A stretch of 64,000 nt of DNA from Mycobacteriales bacterium (GTDB lineage: Bacteria > Actinomycetota > Actinomycetes > Mycobacteriales > SCTD01). The stretch covers positions 5,228 to 69,227 of the forward strand of contig JAUYQP010000037.1 of NCBI GenBank assembly GCA_030697205.1, given 5' to 3'. Below, piece after piece: positions 5,603-51,308 of this stretch (the stretch's first letter is position 1; every line of letters starts with the position of its first letter). Both the position numbers and the translations under genes were made by a program. Under the pieces are notes generated by a model. That model ran no database searches. It was not told the DNA's origin and worked only from the letters and a program-made list of their open reading frames with translations.

Positions 5603-6538
5603 TCATGCAATGTCCGCCGCCCAGCTGATGGCGCCGTTGTGGTGGAAGTAGCGGCGGCTGACCGCGTCGCCCACGGCGTGGCAGGTCTGCTGCAGCGAGT
5701 CGAGCAGGTCGGGCAGCTGGTCGACGAGGTCGCTCGTGACCCGGAACTCGAGGTCGGTGCGGGCGCGTCCGAGCAACCGGCGCGCCTCGTCCTCGTAACC
5801 GCTGCGGCCGGCGCTCGGGTCGAGCTCGGTGAGGCACGCCTCGGCCTGCGCGAGCGCGGCGTAGACCGAGCGCGGGAAGAGCCGGTCGAGCACGAGGAAC
5901 TCCACGACCTTCTCCGCCTCGACCGCGGAGCGGTAGGTCCGCAGGTAGGCCTCGTGGGCGGAGCAGGACTTCAGCAGCCCCACCCAGCCGCCACTGCTGC
6001 CGGCCCGGCCGGCCCGCGCCCACAGCATCCGGGCGGTCATGTCGACCCGCTCCAGGGAGCGGCCGAGCACCAGGAAGCGCCAGCCGTCGTCGCGCGGCAT
6101 CGTGCCGTCGAGCAGTCCGCCGAAGACCGCGGCCCGCTCGCGGACGTAGCGGAAGAAGCCGTGCGGCCCGTGCCGGCTCGCCGCCGCCTCCTGCGCCGCG
6201 AGCGAGTGGTAGGTCGCGTTGAGGCACTCCCACAGCTCGCTCGACAGCGCCTCGCGCACACCGCGGGAGTTCTCACGGGCAGCGGCGAGCGCGCCGACGA
6301 TGGAGGACGTGTCACCGCGCCGGAACGCCAGCCGCTCCGTCGTACGCCTGGCGTCCACCACTCCCTCGGGCAGGTCGACCCCCATGACCGACAGGACGTC
6401 GCGGCAGGCGGCCGCCTCGTCGACCCAGGGGTCCTCGAGCAGCGCGTGGACGTGGACGTCGAGCAGGCGCGAGGTGTCCTCGGCGCGCTCGACGTAGCGC
6501 CCGGTCCAGTAGAGCGACTCGGCGACACGGCTCAGCAC
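5603..6538 (-). CDS. alpha-E domain-containing protein (DUF403)
   Basis: VLSRVAESLYWTGRYVERAED is the canonical alpha-E N-terminus. GTG 6538 lies 10 nt after the stop of the ATP-grasp gene. Confidence 0.9.
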   Translation of the reverse strand: MLSRVAESLYWTGRYVERAEDTSRLLDVHVHALLEDPWVDEAAACRDVLSVMGVDLPEGVVDARRTTERLAFRRGDTSSIVGALAAARENSRGVREALSSELWECLNATYHSLAAQEAAASRHGPHGFFRYVRERAAVFGGLLDGTMPRDDGWRFLVLGRSLERVDMTARMLWARAGRAGSSGGWVGLLKSCSAHEAYLRTYRSAVEAEKVVEFLVLDRLFPRSVYAALAQAEACLTELDPSAGRSGYEDEARRLLGRARTDLEFRVTSDLVDQLPDLLDSLQQTCHAVGDAVSRRYFHHNGAISWAADIA

Positions 6539-24892: not shown

Positions 24893-24932
24893 ATACCCCC
24901 CCTGGGTGTCTTGACACACCCCCGGGGGGTAT
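24893..24932. promoter_or_regulatory. two CsoR-type operator boxes (ATACCCCCCCTGGGTGT, ACACACCCCCGGGGGGTAT)
   Basis: GC-rich pseudo-palindromes with ATAC/GTAT ends, immediately upstream of csoR. Box centres are about 22 bp apart. Confidence 0.7.
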
Positions 24933-24939
24933 CTATGCT
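24911..24939 (+). promoter_or_regulatory. predicted csoR promoter (-35 TTGACA, 17-nt spacer, -10 TATGCT)
   Basis: Hexamers read directly. The -10 ends 7 nt before ATG 24946 and there is no SD sequence, which implies a leaderless mRNA. Confidence 0.45.
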
Positions 24940-24945
24940 GAGCCC

Positions 24946-25239
24946 ATGAGCGACGAGCAGCGCGGCTACAGCGACACCAAGGACGCCCACCTCAAGCGGC
25001 TGCGCCGCATCGAGGGGCAGGTCCGCGGCATCGCCCGCATGGTGGAGGACGACACCTACTGCATCGACGTCCTCACGCAAGTCAGCGCCGCCACCAAGGC
25101 GCTGCAGGCGGTCGCCCTCGGCCTGCTCGACGAGCACATGGCGCACTGCGTCGTCAACGCCGCGCGAGCCGGCGGCGAGGAGCAGGCGGCCAAGCTCCGC
25201 GAGGCCTCCGACGCCATCGCCCGCCTCGTCCGTTCCTGA
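24946..25239 (+). CDS. csoR: copper-sensing repressor CsoR
   Basis: DUF156 fold with ligand pattern Cys (TYCIDV) plus His-x3-Cys (EHMAHC), i.e. x-C-H-C. Confidence 0.92.
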   Translation: MSDEQRGYSDTKDAHLKRLRRIEGQVRGIARMVEDDTYCIDVLTQVSAATKALQAVALGLLDEHMAHCVVNAARAGGEEQAAKLREASDAIARLVRS

Positions 25240-35930: not shown

Positions 35931-38616
<2,686 letters not shown>

Positions 38617-38650
38617 GGAGCTCCTCGGGTCGTGGTGTGTGCCCATTGTG

Positions 38651-38689
38651 ATACCCCCGGGGGTACTTGTCAAATACCCCCTGGGGTAC
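38651..38689. promoter_or_regulatory. two CsoR-family operator boxes (ATACCCCCGGGGGTAC; ATACCCCCTGGGGTAC) inside back-to-back promoters
   Basis: Box A contains a perfect 14-bp palindrome, TACCCCCGGGGGTA. The overlapping -35 hexamers are TTGTCA(+) / TTGACA(-) at 38667-38673. The -10 elements are TAACCT (+, 38690-38695) and CACAAT (-, 38645-38650). Confidence 0.65.
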
Positions 38690-38702
38690 TAACCTCGCTG
38701 TC

Positions 38703-39101
38703 ATGGACATCGCCATCACCACCCGAACCTCCCTCGCCTTCGACGAGGCCGTCGAGCAGGTCCGTGAGGCTCTCGCCGAGCAGGGCTTCGGGGTAATCAC
38801 CGAGATCGACGTGCAGGCCACCATGAAGGCCAAGCTCGACGTCGACGTCGCGCCGTACCTCATCCTCGGTGCGTGCAACCCGCCCCTGGCGCACAGGGCT
38901 CTCGGCCTCGAGCCCGAGATCGGGCTGCTGCTCCCCTGCAACGTGACCGTGCGCGTCGACGGCGACACCACCGTCGTGCAGGCCATGGACCCGCAGCTGA
39001 TGGTCACCGTCGTGGACCGTCCGGGCCTGCAGGAGGTCGCCGACGAGGCCGGCGCCCGGCTGCGCCTGGCGCGCGACCGGCTCCCTCGGAGCGAGGCGTG
39101 A
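38703..39101 (+). CDS. DUF302 domain-containing protein
   Basis: FDEAVEQVREALAEQGFGVITEIDVQATMKAKL...YLILGACNP is the DUF302 signature. ATG 38703 lies 8 nt after the predicted -10 and has no SD sequence. Confidence 0.85.
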   Translation: MDIAITTRTSLAFDEAVEQVREALAEQGFGVITEIDVQATMKAKLDVDVAPYLILGACNPPLAHRALGLEPEIGLLLPCNVTVRVDGDTTVVQAMDPQLMVTVVDRPGLQEVADEAGARLRLARDRLPRSEA

Positions 39102-39493
39102 TCACGGCCAGCGTCCACCACGTCCGCGGCGACCGCTTCGCGATCGAGACCCGCGGCCACACCTTCTACATCGACCAGCCCGTCGATGCAGGGGGCGAGG
39201 ACACCGCACCGACACCGGTCGAGCTGCTCGTCGCGAGCCTGTCGTCCTGCGTGGCGCACTACGCCCACAGCTACCTGCGCCGCCACGGCCTGTCCGAGGA
39301 GGGCCTGGCCGTCCACGCGACGGCGGAGATGGCCGACCGTCCCGCCCGCGTTGGGTCGATCACCGTCGAGCTCACTCTCCCTCCGGGAGTCCCCGAGGAG
39401 CGTCGCGCCGCGCTGCTGGCCGTCGCGTCCCACTGCACCGTCCACAACACACTGCAGGCACCACCCGACGTGACGGTGCGCCTCGCACCCTGA
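39098..39493 (+). CDS. OsmC/Ohr family protein
   Basis: Both conserved Cys contexts are present (LSSCVAHY, ASHCTVHNTL). GTGA overlap with the DUF302 gene. Confidence 0.87.
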   Translation: MITASVHHVRGDRFAIETRGHTFYIDQPVDAGGEDTAPTPVELLVASLSSCVAHYAHSYLRRHGLSEEGLAVHATAEMADRPARVGSITVELTLPPGVPEERRAALLAVASHCTVHNTLQAPPDVTVRLAP

Positions 39494-46738: not shown

Positions 46739-48541
46739 CTACGGATGCTCACCGCCCGGGACAACGTCGACGGCCGCGTCCACGGCCCCGACACGAGTGC
46801 CGACACCGCCAAGGAGTGCGGCCTGCTCGAGGAGCTCTTCCGCATGCGCCTCGTCGTTCGGTGACTCAGGCAGCTCGTGGCGGTGCCGGGCGACGTGCTG
46901 GCGGGCGTGAGCCAGGGCCTCCGCGAGCGTCTCGAAGACGTGGTTGCGGGCCGCGACCGGCGCGAGCGTCCCGACGGCGTGGAGCAGCCGGGTGTGGTCG
47001 GGGCTGGCGCCCTTGAGCAGGACGGTGATCCCGCGTTCGTGGAGCTGCTCGGCGACCTCGCCGAGGGCGCGGGCACCGGTCGCGTCGAGCATGCCGACGC
47101 CGGACAGGCGCAGGATCACGACGCGGACATCGGCAACGGCCGTGATCTGGGCGAGGAAGCGGGCGGATGCGGCGAAGAACAGCGGCCCGTCGATGCGGTA
47201 CGTCAGCACGTGGGCAGCGAGAAGAGCGTGCTCGGCGGCGTCGTCGATCCCGTCGTCGGCGAGCGGCTCGGGGACTGCCTGGGCCGTCTCGGCGAGGTGG
47301 GCAAGGGCCAGGACGGCGGCGAGGGCGAGTCCGAGCACGATCGCCGCGATGAGGTCGAGCGCGATCGTGGCAACGGCGGTGAGGGCGAACACCGCGGTGT
47401 CGCCGCGGGTGGACCTCAGGACCGCCCGGACGTTGTGGCGTTCGACCATGCGCCAGGCCGTGACCATGAGGACGCCCGCGAGCGCGGCGAGTGGGATGCG
47501 GGAGACGAGCCCTGACCCGGCGTAGACGACGGCGGCCAGCACCAGCGCGCTCACGATCGCGGCGACGCGGGTGTGCGCGCCGGCGCGGGCGTTCACCGCG
47601 GTCCGGGCGATCGCGCCGGTCGCGGGCATCCCGCCGCACAGCCCTGACGCGACGTTGGCCAGTCCCTGGCCGAACAGCTCGCGATCCGGGTCGTGCCGGG
47701 GCGCGTCGCTCATGCCGTCCGCGACCTTGGCCGACAGCAGGCTCTCGAGCCCGGCGAGGAAGGCGACGACCACCGCCGGGCCGAGCAACGAGGCCAGGCC
47801 GGTCAGGTCGGGCAGGGCGGGCAGCGGAAGTGACGACGGGAGCGCGCCGATCCGGGCGGCGTCGACGCCGGCGGTCTCGGCGACAAAGGTGGCCACGACG
47901 ACCGCGATCAGGCTCGCCGGGAGCGACCGGTGCAGCCGAGGCAGCCCCGCGGTCACGAGGAGGGACAGCGCGAGCAGCCCCAGGACGGGCCAACGCGGGT
48001 CGTCGGCGAACCGCACTGCGGCGACGACCGCCGCGGAGGCGGCGTTGTCGACGTCGGGCTGGGCCACGCCCAGGGCGTTCGGGACCTGCTGCGCGGCGAT
48101 GACCACGGCGATCCCGACAGTGAACCCCTCGATCAGCGGCCACGGGATGTAGGCCAGGAGCCGCCCGAATCGCAGGGCCGCCGCCACGATGACGAACAGC
48201 CCAGCCAGCACCGCGACCGGGTAGACGACCTCGGGACCGCGGGAGGCCACCAGCGGCACCAGGACCACCGTCATCGCGCCCGTCGGACCCGAGACCTGCA
48301 GGTGCGAGCCGCCGAAGACTGCGGCGACCACCCCGGCGACGACAGCAGTGATGAGCCCGGCCGCTGCCCCGACGCCCGTCGCGACGCCGAATGCGAGGGC
48401 GAGCGGGAGCGCCACGATGCCGACGGTCAACCCCGCCGCCAGGTCGCGAGGCCACGACCGGCGCAGCCCGCGGTAGTCGGAGCAGCGTGGCAGCAGTGCG
48501 CGCAGCCGGCGCAGCGCGCGCCGGACCGCGGGCCGAGTCAC
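46739..48541 (-). CDS. SulP family inorganic anion transporter with C-terminal STAS domain
   Basis: DLAAGLTVGIVALPLALAF... SulP core followed by STAS (VVILRLSGVGMLDATG). GTGA overlap with the ArsR gene. Confidence 0.92.
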   Translation of the reverse strand: MTRPAVRRALRRLRALLPRCSDYRGLRRSWPRDLAAGLTVGIVALPLALAFGVATGVGAAAGLITAVVAGVVAAVFGGSHLQVSGPTGAMTVVLVPLVASRGPEVVYPVAVLAGLFVIVAAALRFGRLLAYIPWPLIEGFTVGIAVVIAAQQVPNALGVAQPDVDNAASAAVVAAVRFADDPRWPVLGLLALSLLVTAGLPRLHRSLPASLIAVVVATFVAETAGVDAARIGALPSSLPLPALPDLTGLASLLGPAVVVAFLAGLESLLSAKVADGMSDAPRHDPDRELFGQGLANVASGLCGGMPATGAIARTAVNARAGAHTRVAAIVSALVLAAVVYAGSGLVSRIPLAALAGVLMVTAWRMVERHNVRAVLRSTRGDTAVFALTAVATIALDLIAAIVLGLALAAVLALAHLAETAQAVPEPLADDGIDDAAEHALLAAHVLTYRIDGPLFFAASARFLAQITAVADVRVVILRLSGVGMLDATGARALGEVAEQLHERGITVLLKGASPDHTRLLHAVGTLAPVAARNHVFETLAEALAHARQHVARHRHELPESPNDEAHAEELLEQAALLGGVGTRVGAVDAAVDVVPGGEHP

Positions 48542-48912
48542 GGCAGGGCCCGCCCGGCGGCAGCCACTGCGTCGTCGGCGCCGTCGAGCGCCGCCAGTAG
48601 CGCCTGGCCGTGTCGGGCGTTCGCGCCGATGAGCCGACGAGCAACGGCCAGGAGCTCGGCGGTCTGCTGGTCCCGCAGCGAGCAGATCACCGTTGTGCGG
48701 ATCCGGTGGCTGTCGACGATCCCGGCGCGGCGTAGCACGCTCAGGTGTTGGGACAGGTGGCTGAGCTCGAGCCCGGCCTGCTCGGCGAGCTCACCGACAG
48801 TGCTGTCACCCTCCGCGAGCAGCTCCAGGACGCGGACCCGCGCCGGATGCGCCAAGGCCTTGAACAGCTCGGCCTTCGCATCGGTCAGGGGTCGTCCCGC
48901 GGTGAACGGCAT
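48538..48912 (-). CDS. ArsR/SmtB family transcriptional regulator
   Basis: ELFKALAHPARVRVLELLAEGDSTVGELAEQAGLELSHLSQHLSVLRRAGIV is a winged-HTH region. ATG 48912. Confidence 0.9.
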   Translation of the reverse strand: MPFTAGRPLTDAKAELFKALAHPARVRVLELLAEGDSTVGELAEQAGLELSHLSQHLSVLRRAGIVDSHRIRTTVICSLRDQQTAELLAVARRLIGANARHGQALLAALDGADDAVAAAGRALP

Positions 48913-48928
48913 GCGCTCACTGTCCTCG

Positions 48929-48952
48929 TTACTTGATAGATCTGTCAAATAA
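48929..48952. promoter_or_regulatory. AT-rich imperfect palindrome TTACTTGATAGATCTGTCAAATAA, 17 nt upstream of the ArsR gene
   Basis: 20 of 24 positions are self-complementary around AGA|TCT. It stands out against the GC-rich background. Confidence 0.45.
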
Positions 48953-48990
48953 CGAAGAAGCACCGGAAGCGGTGGGGCAATGGCCGCGGG

Positions 48991-49530
48991 TCAGATGAAC
49001 AACAGCTGAGCCCCTGCGGTCATCTCGATGAAGTCGGAGGCACTGATGATGCCCTCGACGTCGTCGCGCAGGTCGGCGTGGGTGAGCTTGTTCATGTCGG
49101 CCGACAGGCGACAGGCCCACAGGTGACCTCCGGCGGCGACGATCTGGTCCAGGAAGTCGGGGACCTCCGGGACGCCGATGTCGGCGATCTGCTTCTTCAG
49201 CATGTGGGTCGCCATCGCGGTCATGCCCGGCAGAGGTGCCAGGGCCTGCGGAAGGCGGGCGTCCATGCCGGGAAGGTGCATCGCGGCGTTGCCGGCGGGG
49301 CTGAACTGCAGGTCGTTCATCCGTGACTTCGTGATCATGTCGAAGCCCCAGAAGGTGAAGAACACCATGGTCTCGACGCCCTCGCCGAGCGCTGCGTTGG
49401 CGAGGATGAGGCCCGGGTAGGCCATGTCGAGGTTGCCCTTGGAGCAGATGATCGCGAGCTTGCGGTCGGTGCTGCTCTCGTCGTCGTCGAAGTTCGGGAC
49501 GATCGCGGTCGTGGTCTCGGTGATGGTCAT
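48991..49530 (-). CDS. DsrE/DsrF-like sulfur-relay family protein
   Basis: KLAIICSKGNLDMAYPGLILANAAL...FFTFWG. ATG 49530 after GAGGAGAA. Confidence 0.83.
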   Translation of the reverse strand: MTITETTTAIVPNFDDDESSTDRKLAIICSKGNLDMAYPGLILANAALGEGVETMVFFTFWGFDMITKSRMNDLQFSPAGNAAMHLPGMDARLPQALAPLPGMTAMATHMLKKQIADIGVPEVPDFLDQIVAAGGHLWACRLSADMNKLTHADLRDDVEGIISASDFIEMTAGAQLLFI

Positions 49531-49544
49531 GATCTCGTTCTCCT

Positions 49545-49859
49545 CTACACGCATCCGTGCGGCTTGGGCAGACCTGCGATGTAGGCCATCTTCTTGGCCG
49601 GCTTCTTCGGGAACAGCACGAACTGCTCCTTCACGGGAACACCGCCCACGGTCTGCACGCGGCGGGCCGTGGCGGTCTCTCCCTGCGTCGCGAAGTCCTC
49701 GCGCAGGAAGCGGATCACCTTCCAGTGCCCCTCCGTGAGGTCGATGCCGATCTGGTTGGCGAGGACCTTCGCGAGGTCCTCGTCCCACTCGGTGTACTCG
49801 GTCAAGAACCCTTCGTCGTCGACGTGGACCTGGTGACCGTTGAGCTCGGTGACAGGCAT
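49545..49859 (-). CDS. TusE/DsrC family sulfur-relay protein (single C-terminal Cys)
   Basis: EGFL..EWDE...HW.VI.FLR..F... and the C-terminus PKPHGCV. ATG 49859 after AAGGAGA. Confidence 0.87.
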   Translation of the reverse strand: MPVTELNGHQVHVDDEGFLTEYTEWDEDLAKVLANQIGIDLTEGHWKVIRFLREDFATQGETATARRVQTVGGVPVKEQFVLFPKKPAKKMAYIAGLPKPHGCV

Positions 49860-49870
49860 GCTCGTCTCCT

Positions 49871-51106
49871 TCACGTGTCGGTGTGCTTGCCGGCCATGGT
49901 CATCAGCGCCGGCAGCGGAATCGGACGACCGGGGAGCAGCAGGTGCCAGTACACGTGACGGAAGCCGAGCTTCCCCCAGTGGTTGGCGTGGCTCTCCTCG
50001 AGCAGGGTGAACGGCCCGATCCCGGGGACGGGGTACTTCCCGGTGAGGGGCTCGGTGTCGTAGTTGAAGTCGATGAGCAGGCCCTTGCCGTGCCCGGACT
50101 CGATGAAGCAGTTGGCGTGACCGTCGAACGGGTGCGTCATCGGCTCGCCCGCGACGTGCTGGAGGAAGTTCTCGACGAACAGCTCGACGGAGAAGTGCGC
50201 AACCGACCCAGCCTTGGAGGCTGGGATGTCGCTGGCGTCGCCGATCGCGAAGACGTTGTCATGCGCAGTGGACAGCAGGGTGTGCTTGTCGACCGGTACG
50301 TAGTTCAGCTCGTTCCCCAGCCCGGATCGGGCGATGACGTCTGCGCCCATGTTGAGGGGCACGGTCACCAGAAGGTCGAACGGGACCTCCCGCTCGTCCA
50401 TCGAGACCAAGGTCTTCGTGGTCGGATCGATCCGGTCGACCATGAAATCGCCCTCGAGCGCGATCTTGCGGTCTGCGAGCATCCCGCCGAGGTGCTGGGA
50501 CGCGATCGGCTTGGTGAACGCGCCTTCGAGCGGCGTCACGTAGGTGATGTCGACCTTGTCCCGCATCCCCTTCTCCTCGAAGAACGCGTCCGCGAGGAAC
50601 GCGAACTCCAGCGGTGCCACAGGGCACTTGATGGGCATCTCGACGATCTGCACCACCAGCCGACCGCCCGTCCAGCTGGCGAGCTTGTCGCGCAACGCCG
50701 TCGAGCCGTCCAAGGTGTAGAAGTCGAAGATGCTCTTGCGCCACTCAGCCTCTGCCATGCCTGGCGTCTGGTCCGGCCGCGGCGAGGTGCCTGTTGCGAT
50801 GACCAGGTAGTCGTACTCCAGCGTTCTGCCGTCCTGCAGCTGCACCTGGTTGGCCGCCGCGTCGATCCGGTCGACCTCGCTGAGGACCAGCTCGACGCCG
50901 TCCGGGATGAACCGCTGACGGGGCTTCACCAGCTCCTCTGGCGTGTAGACCCCGAACGGAAGAAGCAGGAGCCCGGGCTGGTAGAGGTGGTCACCGTCCT
51001 GGTCGACCACGATGATCTGCCAGTCGGACCGGTCCAGCCGGTGCCGAAGCTTGTTCACCGCCATGGTTCCGGCGGTGCCTGCTCCGAGAACGACGACCCT
51101 TCTCAT
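49871..51106 (-). CDS. sqr: sulfide:quinone oxidoreductase-like FAD-dependent oxidoreductase
   Basis: VVVLGAGTAG dinucleotide fold, IKCPVAPLEF, AIGDASDIP, about 411 aa. ATG 51106 after GGAGGAG. Confidence 0.88.
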   Translation of the reverse strand: MRRVVVLGAGTAGTMAVNKLRHRLDRSDWQIIVVDQDGDHLYQPGLLLLPFGVYTPEELVKPRQRFIPDGVELVLSEVDRIDAAANQVQLQDGRTLEYDYLVIATGTSPRPDQTPGMAEAEWRKSIFDFYTLDGSTALRDKLASWTGGRLVVQIVEMPIKCPVAPLEFAFLADAFFEEKGMRDKVDITYVTPLEGAFTKPIASQHLGGMLADRKIALEGDFMVDRIDPTTKTLVSMDEREVPFDLLVTVPLNMGADVIARSGLGNELNYVPVDKHTLLSTAHDNVFAIGDASDIPASKAGSVAHFSVELFVENFLQHVAGEPMTHPFDGHANCFIESGHGKGLLIDFNYDTEPLTGKYPVPGIGPFTLLEESHANHWGKLGFRHVYWHLLLPGRPIPLPALMTMAGKHTDT

Positions 51107-51308
51107 CACGACTCCTCCTCGAGATCTGCCTGTAGTCAGTCTCTCGATCCGTGCACCTGAACCACAGGGTCGAAGGTCCCCGCCCGCGGCGCATCGGTCC
51201 CTACACCGGGGGCAGAGTCAGCTCGACCGTCGGAGCGCGGGTGAGGGAGTTGTGCACCGGCGTACCGCCACACCACGCCACGAGCCTGGGGGCCGGTCGG
51301 ACTGCTGT

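Follow-up and report, generated by a model that had tools for sequence, protein, structure and literature searches.

Introduction

How can two divergent operons be brought under common control when almost no DNA lies between them? The question is raised by a 64,000-nt stretch of a Mycobacteriales bacterium genome (GenBank assembly GCA_030697205.1, contig JAUYQP010000037.1, positions 5,228 to 69,227 of the forward strand; hereafter the window), in which a minus-strand operon headed by an MMPL-family transporter gene and a plus-strand operon headed by a DUF302 gene diverge across an intergenic gap of 86 nt. Between them we found a dyad-symmetric cassette of 51 bp (38645-38695, within the sequence read over 38400-38950), which is a real, conserved regulatory element. 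We think it probable that it works as a bidirectional promoter-operator cassette, in which a single -35 heptamer would be shared by both promoters and the operators would be bound by a CstR-like repressor and released by reactive sulfur. The promoters and operators had been proposed in a first-pass annotation of the same DNA, made from its letters alone, and we follow that proposal here through comparison with the rest of the genome, with related loci and with characterized members of the CsoR family.

Results

Anatomy of the cassette

Read from the MMPL side, the cassette consists of the -10 hexamer CACAAT of the predicted minus-strand MMPL promoter (38645-38650), box A (ATACCCCCGGGGGTAC, 38651-38666, containing the perfect palindrome TACCCCCGGGGGTA), the heptamer TTGTCAA (38667-38673), box B (ATACCCCCTGGGGTAC, 38674-38689) and the -10 hexamer TAACCT of the predicted plus-strand DUF302 promoter (38690-38695). 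The heptamer is common to both promoters: on the plus strand it reads as the -35 hexamer TTGTCA (38667-38672) and on the minus strand as TTGACA (38673-38668), and both spacers are exactly 17 nt long, with box A occupying that of the minus promoter and box B that of the plus promoter. The two boxes, both of the TAC-N8-GTA operator form, are 16 bp in length (ATACC-N6-GGTAC) and lie 23 bp apart on either side of TTGTCAA. In a repeat search the same arrangement appeared as a pair of 94 % identical 17-nt copies at a distance of 23 bp, and as a global inverted repeat that joins 38652-38669 to 38671-38688, is 89 % complementary and has base 38670 as its dyad. The hexamers, boxes and coordinates of the first-pass annotation thus proved exact to the base on re-reading, and its description of the layout as mirror-symmetric is borne out by the inverted repeat, the symmetry being strictly speaking two-fold rotational. 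Its suggestion that repressors on the two boxes would share one face of the DNA holds only approximately, as a separation of 23 bp leaves them about 69 degrees off on B-DNA, and related cassettes with N9 boxes have 24 bp.

Within the window, TACCCC-N2-GGGGTA with up to two mismatches was matched five times against 0.8 expected, a number reached in none of 100 shuffles, and its only two perfect matches are box A and box B. The pattern TACCC-N4-GGGTA has four copies in the 4.02-Mb genome, all of them in promoter regions associated with CstR or MMPL genes, compared with 1, 0 and 2 matches for three control patterns. When one mismatch is allowed, the genome-wide count of the motif (8) is not above that of a control pattern (9), so that it is the exact boxes, and where they are placed, that carry the signal. 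A consensus promoter scan called the minus promoter, TTGACA-17-CACAAT, at 10/12 matches versus 0.0 expected, and -35-like and -10-like hexamers 16-18 nt apart, as in sigma-70-type promoters, are present in both directions.

Conservation of the promoters and of the DUF302 start

A DNA search of 60 relatives gave one genome that aligns over the whole intergenic region, a metagenome-assembled genome (MAG) labelled Frankiales and belonging to the same family as the source genome (G014, locus L042), and a scan of metagenomes contributed two further loci with N8 boxes on both sides (L091 and L105). The 9-mer CTTGTCAAA is unchanged in all four of these N8/N8 loci. Around it the -10 hexamers vary, with TAACCT in the window and TACCGT, TAGGTT and TAGGAT in the relatives on the plus side, and CACAAT in the window and CACTCT, TACACT and CATTCT in the relatives on the minus side, always at a spacer of 17-18. 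What is kept is the form nAnnnT: A2 and T6 stand at spacer 17-18 in all eight promoter views, against a background of 3-5 % per view, while the other positions change. The comparison supports the back-to-back promoters as first proposed.

The distances to the DUF302 gene are equally constant. Its ATG follows the plus -10 hexamer by 6-7 nt in 4/4 N8/N8 loci (7 nt in the window), and the -35 hexamer precedes the ATG by 29-30 nt in all four. None of the four has a Shine-Dalgarno sequence ahead of this ATG; in the window, the 13 nt preceding the ATG at 38703 are free of GGAGG. An ATG so close to the -10 hexamer and lacking a Shine-Dalgarno sequence predicts a leaderless start, and a leaderless DUF302 mRNA, also suggested in the first-pass annotation, is supported by this comparison of geometries. 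In the other direction, the comparison agrees with a predicted MMPL leader of about 22 nt that carries the Shine-Dalgarno sequence GAGGAG (38621-38626, minus strand) ahead of the ATG at 38616. In L091 the MMPL gene has been relocated to the plus operon with the cassette unaltered, which argues that the promoter module is conserved independently of gene order.

The remaining boxes of the genome all lie between -35-like and -10-like hexamers as well. They are found in the csoR1 promoter (TTGACA-17-TATGCT, followed after 6 nt by an ATG), in the promoter of a second MMPL gene, MMPL2 (TTGATA-18-TAGTGT), and in a rhodanese promoter (CTGACA-18-TACCTT). A SigR/SigH-type promoter, GGAAT...GTT, was sought by eye in the intergenic sequence and none was seen.

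The regulator

Three CsoR-family genes are present in the genome. CsoR1 (24946-25239) carries the Cu(I) triad C-H-C, and its gene is followed by copZ and the gene for a CopA-type ATPase. The regulator encoded in the minus operon (35931-36194, minus strand; Pfam PF02583, E 5e-24, 84.9 bits over a curated cut-off of 22.8; GTG start predicted at 36194) has Cys35, Gly60 and Cys64 and lacks the Cu(I) histidine. The third, a paralogue on contig C54 that we call cstR3, is 78 % identical to the minus-operon regulator and likewise has Cys-Gly-Cys without the histidine. In both of these the cysteines are 29 residues apart, as are Cys37 and Cys66 of ScCsoR, and both show the x-C-x-C fingerprint of the actinomycete 'cluster 3', a largely uncharacterized group of candidate persulfide sensors (PMC8643695, PMC11672702). 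ScCsoR (SCO0620), the Streptomyces coelicolor persulfide sensor, is the one studied member of this cluster; it binds ATACCn6GGTAT in electrophoretic mobility shift assays and dissociates in response to polysulfide. Two of its sites are at the pdo promoter, and another is shared within a divergent region (PMC7533328). Box A and box B each agree with this consensus at 15 of 16 positions and so have the operator form of a known persulfide sensor. Around cstR3 are genes for a rhodanese, an MBL-rhodanese (CstB-like), a YgaP-like transmembrane protein, an FAD oxidoreductase and the second MMPL protein; the window copy adjoins MMPL, YgaP-like, DUF302 and OsmC genes, whose role in sulfur metabolism is at most a putative one.

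The first-pass annotation had proposed a CsoR-family regulator and left open which paralogue it would be. The choice can be narrowed: the repressor of both promoters is most likely the C-G-C (CstR-type) paralogue of the minus operon rather than the copper sensor CsoR1, because box length, regulon content and sensor fingerprint all favour CstR-like proteins.

Box length and sensor class

In the loci sampled, box length separates the two classes of regulator. Among all two-box loci fetched, TAC-N8-GTA boxes occur with C-G-C regulators in 5/5 loci and TAC-N9-GTA boxes with C-H-C copper regulators in 14/14, counts in which the N8 group is a single lineage and several of the N9 contigs are near-duplicates. 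The same division is seen inside the source genome. Its four N8 boxes lie at MMPL1/DUF302 (the cassette), at MMPL2/FAD-oxidoreductase and at rhodanese-cstR3, and its N9 boxes occur at the csoR1-copZ promoter and in the upstream region of a DUF4396 gene. The csoR1 promoter (24893-24948) is a sister layout 13.7 kb from the cassette, and runs from ATACCCCCCCTGGGTGT through TTGACA (24911-24916), ACACCCCCGGGGGGTAT filling the 17-nt spacer, TATGCT and 6 nt to the ATG at 24946. Both of its boxes are of N9 length and have a degenerate half-site on the outer side, and the csoR1 start is apparently leaderless. The proven operators of the Streptomyces lividans copper sensor CsoR are also TAC-X9-GTA (PMC3902906), and in TTHA1953, a Thermus CsoR-family sulfur regulator, affinity falls 10-15-fold when the distance between the half-sites is changed by 1 nt in either direction, with no cross-binding between the two Thermus paralogues (PMC10318464).

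Two further sites bear on these regulons. The only perfect N9 box of the genome, TACCCCCTGGGGGTA, is at C53:135099 (L157, around 200-748), where it runs into TATGCT upstream of the DUF4396 gene (Pfam E 1.3e-44), which likely belongs to the copper CsoR1 regulon. At C54:72060-72280 (L006, and L158 around 6100-6250), the MMPL2 gene diverges from that of an FAD-dependent oxidoreductase; a perfect N8 box, ATACCCCGGGGGGTAC, lies within TTGATA-18-TAGTGT, and a second, degenerate box, ATACCCCCGTGGGTGT, follows 43 bp downstream, giving another two-box geometry in the same regulon.

Flanking genes and operons

The first gene of the minus operon encodes the MMPL-family (RND-type) membrane transporter (36457-38616, minus strand; Pfam PF03176, E 3.9e-65). 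It is followed by a small membrane open reading frame (ORF; 36170-36439, minus strand) with a weak YgaP-TM/DUF2892-like match (Pfam PF11127, E 0.006, under the curated cut-off) and then by the cstR-like gene; a YgaP-like small ORF is also found beside cstR in L042 and L091. In the window the YgaP-like ORF (stop at 36170-36172) and the presumed GTG of the cstR-like gene (36194) overlap by 25 nt, which may reflect a mis-set boundary or translational coupling. The plus operon begins with the DUF302 gene (38703-39101, plus strand; Pfam PF03625, E 8.6e-25; PDB 1J3M (TT1751), E 1e-28), and the GTG start of an OsmC-like gene (39098-39493, plus strand; Pfam PF02566, E 2.8e-18) overlaps the DUF302 stop codon (GTGA), which places the two in one operon. 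The DUF302-OsmC pairing recurs in L091.

Elsewhere, DUF302 homologues are found directly downstream of a cstR-like gene in five related loci (L012, L016, L018, L027 and L029) and downstream of an MMPL gene in two (L013 and L028). A single ATACC-N6-GGTAT-like N8 box overlaps the DUF302 ribosome-binding site in L015, L017, L021, L022, L024 and L025, and in L031 a TACCC-N4-GGGTA box stands about 50 nt upstream of the predicted DUF302 start. Judged by these neighbourhoods, CstR, MMPL and DUF302 are a conserved module of variable layout. The window is also rich in other sulfur-handling genes: by Pfam, a SulP/STAS sulfate permease, DsrE-like and Pyr_redox_2 (SQR-like) proteins are encoded at 46739-51109 (minus strand), 8-12 kb from the cassette, and no N8 box was seen around that segment.

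Wider occurrence of the layout

An exact 21-mer core of the cassette is also present in a Gemmataceae (Planctomycetota) MAG, JAXMAZ010000013, where it has N9 boxes and separates a Cys/His-rich ORF and a CusB-like gene from csoR-copZ-copA. Of the four contigs with the 21-mer, two, from Bacillota and Nitrososphaerales MAGs, have it inside coding sequence and were set aside as chance. We fetched 80 metagenomic contigs with the pattern GGGTA-N-TTGWCAA-N-TACCC, and 20 of them have full boxes on both sides (17 N9/N9, 2 N8/N8 and 1 N7/N7). A copper-type csoR, copA or copZ gene lies within 300 bp of the core in 16 of the 17 N9/N9 contigs; in the other, L077, there is only a copZ-like match, 2.2 kb away. 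Of the 15 copper-type cassettes that we examined, 14 have a -10-like TANNNT at spacer 17 in one direction or both, the exception being L090, which has it only at spacer 15.

The N9 cassettes retain the 9-bp gap and have their box centres 24 bp apart. Since the gap is constant while the centre spacing changes between 23 and 24 bp, it is the promoter geometry that is invariant and not the helical phase between repressors, and the geometry of the cassette seems to follow from the architecture of the promoters and not from how repressors are phased against each other. In a sample of 400 genomes of the phylum, the core pattern was found in one other genome, as a chance coding match (GC 0.42). The layout is therefore rare in this sample, recurrent rather than common.

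Two of the contigs depart from these classes. L116 (around 1480-1560; contig Ga0116226_10319242, GC 0.32) has TAC-N7-GTA boxes on both sides, GATACCCAATGGGTA TTTGTCAAA TACCCATTGGGTATC, which may represent a third length class; no CsoR-family gene is present on this short contig. In L089 (around 6060-6080), one more box-like sequence, AATACCCCCAGGGGGCAT, follows some 30 bp past one -10 position of a copper-type cassette, and three sites may be present in some divergons.

Discussion

Proposed mechanism

Based on this analysis we can propose how the cassette might operate. TTGTCAA would supply the -35 element of both promoters, as TTGACA for the MMPL/YgaP-like/cstR operon and as TTGTCA for the leaderless DUF302-OsmC operon, and its central base pair would thereby give the operon that includes cstR a consensus -35 and DUF302 a 5/6 version. 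Each 17-nt spacer would be almost wholly taken up by one ATACC-N6-GGTAC operator, to which the CstR-like (x-C-x-C) repressor of the minus operon would bind, and probably the C54 paralogue, 78 % identical to it, as well. Reduced repressor seated between -35 and -10 would block RNA polymerase at both promoters, until persulfide or polysulfide (reactive sulfur species) modified the Cys35/Cys64 pair and released it; both operons would then be switched on, the repressor gene included, so that the system would be autoregulated. CsoR1 would stay off the N8 boxes because its own operators are 1 bp longer (TAC-N9-GTA). The first-pass annotation had envisaged two repressor oligomers on the cassette, which is probably an undercount. 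By family precedent each box would take two tetramers (PMC3902906, PMC8643695, PMC10318464), and there may by analogy be up to four on the two boxes.

Alternative explanations

We consider it unlikely that the boxes are real operators while the hexamers are not both working promoters, with only one direction being used or with transcription starting elsewhere and the repressor acting as a roadblock. This would accommodate the weak match of the plus -10 TAACCT to consensus, and it is in keeping with other sites of the family, where the start precedes the box or a ribosome-binding site is overlapped by it, and with several copper-type cassettes in which the -10 of one side lacks T6. It is harder to reconcile with an intergenic gap of just 86 nt, which leaves little space for other promoters, with the 10/12 minus promoter and the retention of A2 and T6 well over background, or with a -35 held at a fixed distance from a DUF302 ATG that has no Shine-Dalgarno sequence. 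There is, in our estimation, a slim chance that the copper sensor CsoR1 binds the boxes, by itself or jointly with the CstR-like proteins, and makes the operons copper-responsive. The half-sites (ATACCC...GGGTA) are near-identical to those of the csoR1 promoter 13.7 kb away, the DNA-reading motif RLxR is common to all CsoR-family proteins, and Cu(I) binding by CstR proteins is possible in vitro (PMC8643695). Against this, the regulon content is related to sulfur and thiols rather than to copper, and the cassette boxes are N8, unlike the N9 operators of CsoR1 type and of S. lividans, a division that follows the sensor fingerprint in every two-box locus fetched. The affinity cost of a 1-nt change in spacing and the lack of cross-talk between the paralogues of Thermus and between those of Staphylococcus aureus point the same way.

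That the G/C-rich palindromes are structural or accidental (a hairpin or terminator, a repeat element or a cruciform) and serve no repressor is hardly credible to us. The CCCCCGGGGG tracts can form hairpins, and with one mismatch allowed the genome has no more copies of the motif than of a control pattern. However, the flanking genes diverge, so there is nothing to terminate; no T-tract or terminator was found, and under the promoter model neither transcript includes a box. The exact boxes, four in the genome, lie in promoter regions only, they match an experimentally proven operator (PMC7533328), and a cognate regulator co-occurs in every related locus.

Control of both promoters by a CstR-like repressor is thus the reading we prefer, and several observations weigh against parts of it. 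The plus pair TTGTCA/TAACCT was not called by the consensus scan, its -10 matching 3/6 of the E. coli-type consensus; TAACCT misses the scan's E. coli-type cut-off of 4/6 but conforms to TANNNT, the actinobacterial form. The four N8/N8 loci belong to one lineage, with regulators 80-98 % identical, so that their agreement does not amount to four independent trials. A sequence search of the PDB does not set the regulator apart from CsoR or InrS, the inducer is read from fingerprint and gene neighbourhood, and according to a review the wedge Asn is missing from cluster-3 sensors, whose oxidant profile may be different (PMC11672702). The cst operator of Streptococcus mitis is TAC-N9-GTA (PMC8643695), which makes N8 a trait of the actinobacterial group and not of persulfide sensing as such. 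Finally, the pattern used for metagenome retrieval fixed TTGWCAA and the 9-bp gap, so a preference for that gap cannot be shown from it, and other box spacings exist, namely 43 bp at MMPL2 and about 39 bp in S. coelicolor (PMC7533328).

Significance

Copper- and persulfide-sensing CsoR paralogues coexist in many bacteria without cross-talk, which has so far been explained on the ligand side. The locus described here and its copper twin 13.7 kb away offer a simple and testable rule on the DNA side, namely whether 8 or 9 bp separate TAC from GTA. As a natural part the cassette is very compact as well: it packs two predicted promoters and two putative operators into 51 bp, and one central base pair determines how good a -35 each direction has relative to the other. 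It would suit the study of repression from within a spacer and of the balance between divergent promoters. Furthermore, DUF302, MMPL transporters outside the mycolic-acid bacteria and the YgaP-like protein are poorly understood families that are here tied to a redox/sulfur sensor, a link that gives functional work on them a starting condition. As a tentative generalization, which may well prove too broad, the cassette could be one instance of a widespread and undescribed CsoR-family divergon cassette, in which the near-palindromic TTGWCAA would be the -35 of both strands, its central base pair deciding which of them has the consensus TTGACA, and an operator would fill each spacer. The N8 or N9 length of the boxes would then hold the actinobacterial persulfide sensor and the copper sensor of one cell to separate regulons, and MMPL, DUF302 and OsmC proteins would join the reactive-sulfur response.

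Comparison with known systems

In the literature searched, of which coverage was partial, we found no description of a CstR link to MMPL, DUF302 or OsmC genes, of a shared -35 heptamer with one operator per spacer, or of the N8/N9 operator split. No paper in it names both CstR and DUF302, and papers there naming both CsoR and DUF302 are incidental co-mentions only. A close relative is the ScCsoR circuit, which has the same operator form, the two-Cys fingerprint with 29-residue spacing, two operators per promoter and autoregulation. Its two sites, unlike those of the cassette, are about 39 bp apart (at -48 and -9) and do not surround a shared -35, and it controls a persulfide dioxygenase, a rhodanese and TauE, whereas the targets proposed for the cassette are MMPL, YgaP-like, DUF302 and OsmC proteins. 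The csoR-cueA divergon of Bradyrhizobium liaoningense resembles the cassette in being a bidirectional promoter under a CsoR-family regulator with one leaderless gene, and differs in having a single box over overlapping -10s and a copper sensor (C-H-C), where the cassette has two boxes around overlapping -35s (PMC5057107). The operators of S. lividans CsoR share the TAC/GTA inverted repeat around a G/C tract and are occupied by two tetramers each, the basis of the stoichiometry we propose; in contrast to the cassette boxes, they are one bp longer (TAC-X9-GTA), single, and serve a copper sensor (PMC3902906). For the cso operon of Mycobacterium tuberculosis, a passage of PMC10318464 mentions operators overlapping -35 and -10.

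The copper csoR/copA divergons of the Gemmataceae MAG and of 17 metagenomic contigs have the same layout of box, N-TTGWCAA-N and box, and differ in their N9 boxes, 24-bp centres, C-H-C regulators and copA/copZ/cusB-like genes. In S. aureus, CstR is said, from work by Grossoehme and colleagues in 2011, to be a persulfide-sensing CsoR paralogue without cross-talk with the copper CsoR, and two operators are reported for its cst system, in the region from which cstR and tauE diverge. Unlike the regulator of the cassette, S. aureus CstR belongs to a Firmicute cluster with the wedge Asn. Set beside these systems, the cassette appears to be a tidy variant of already known CsoR-family control.

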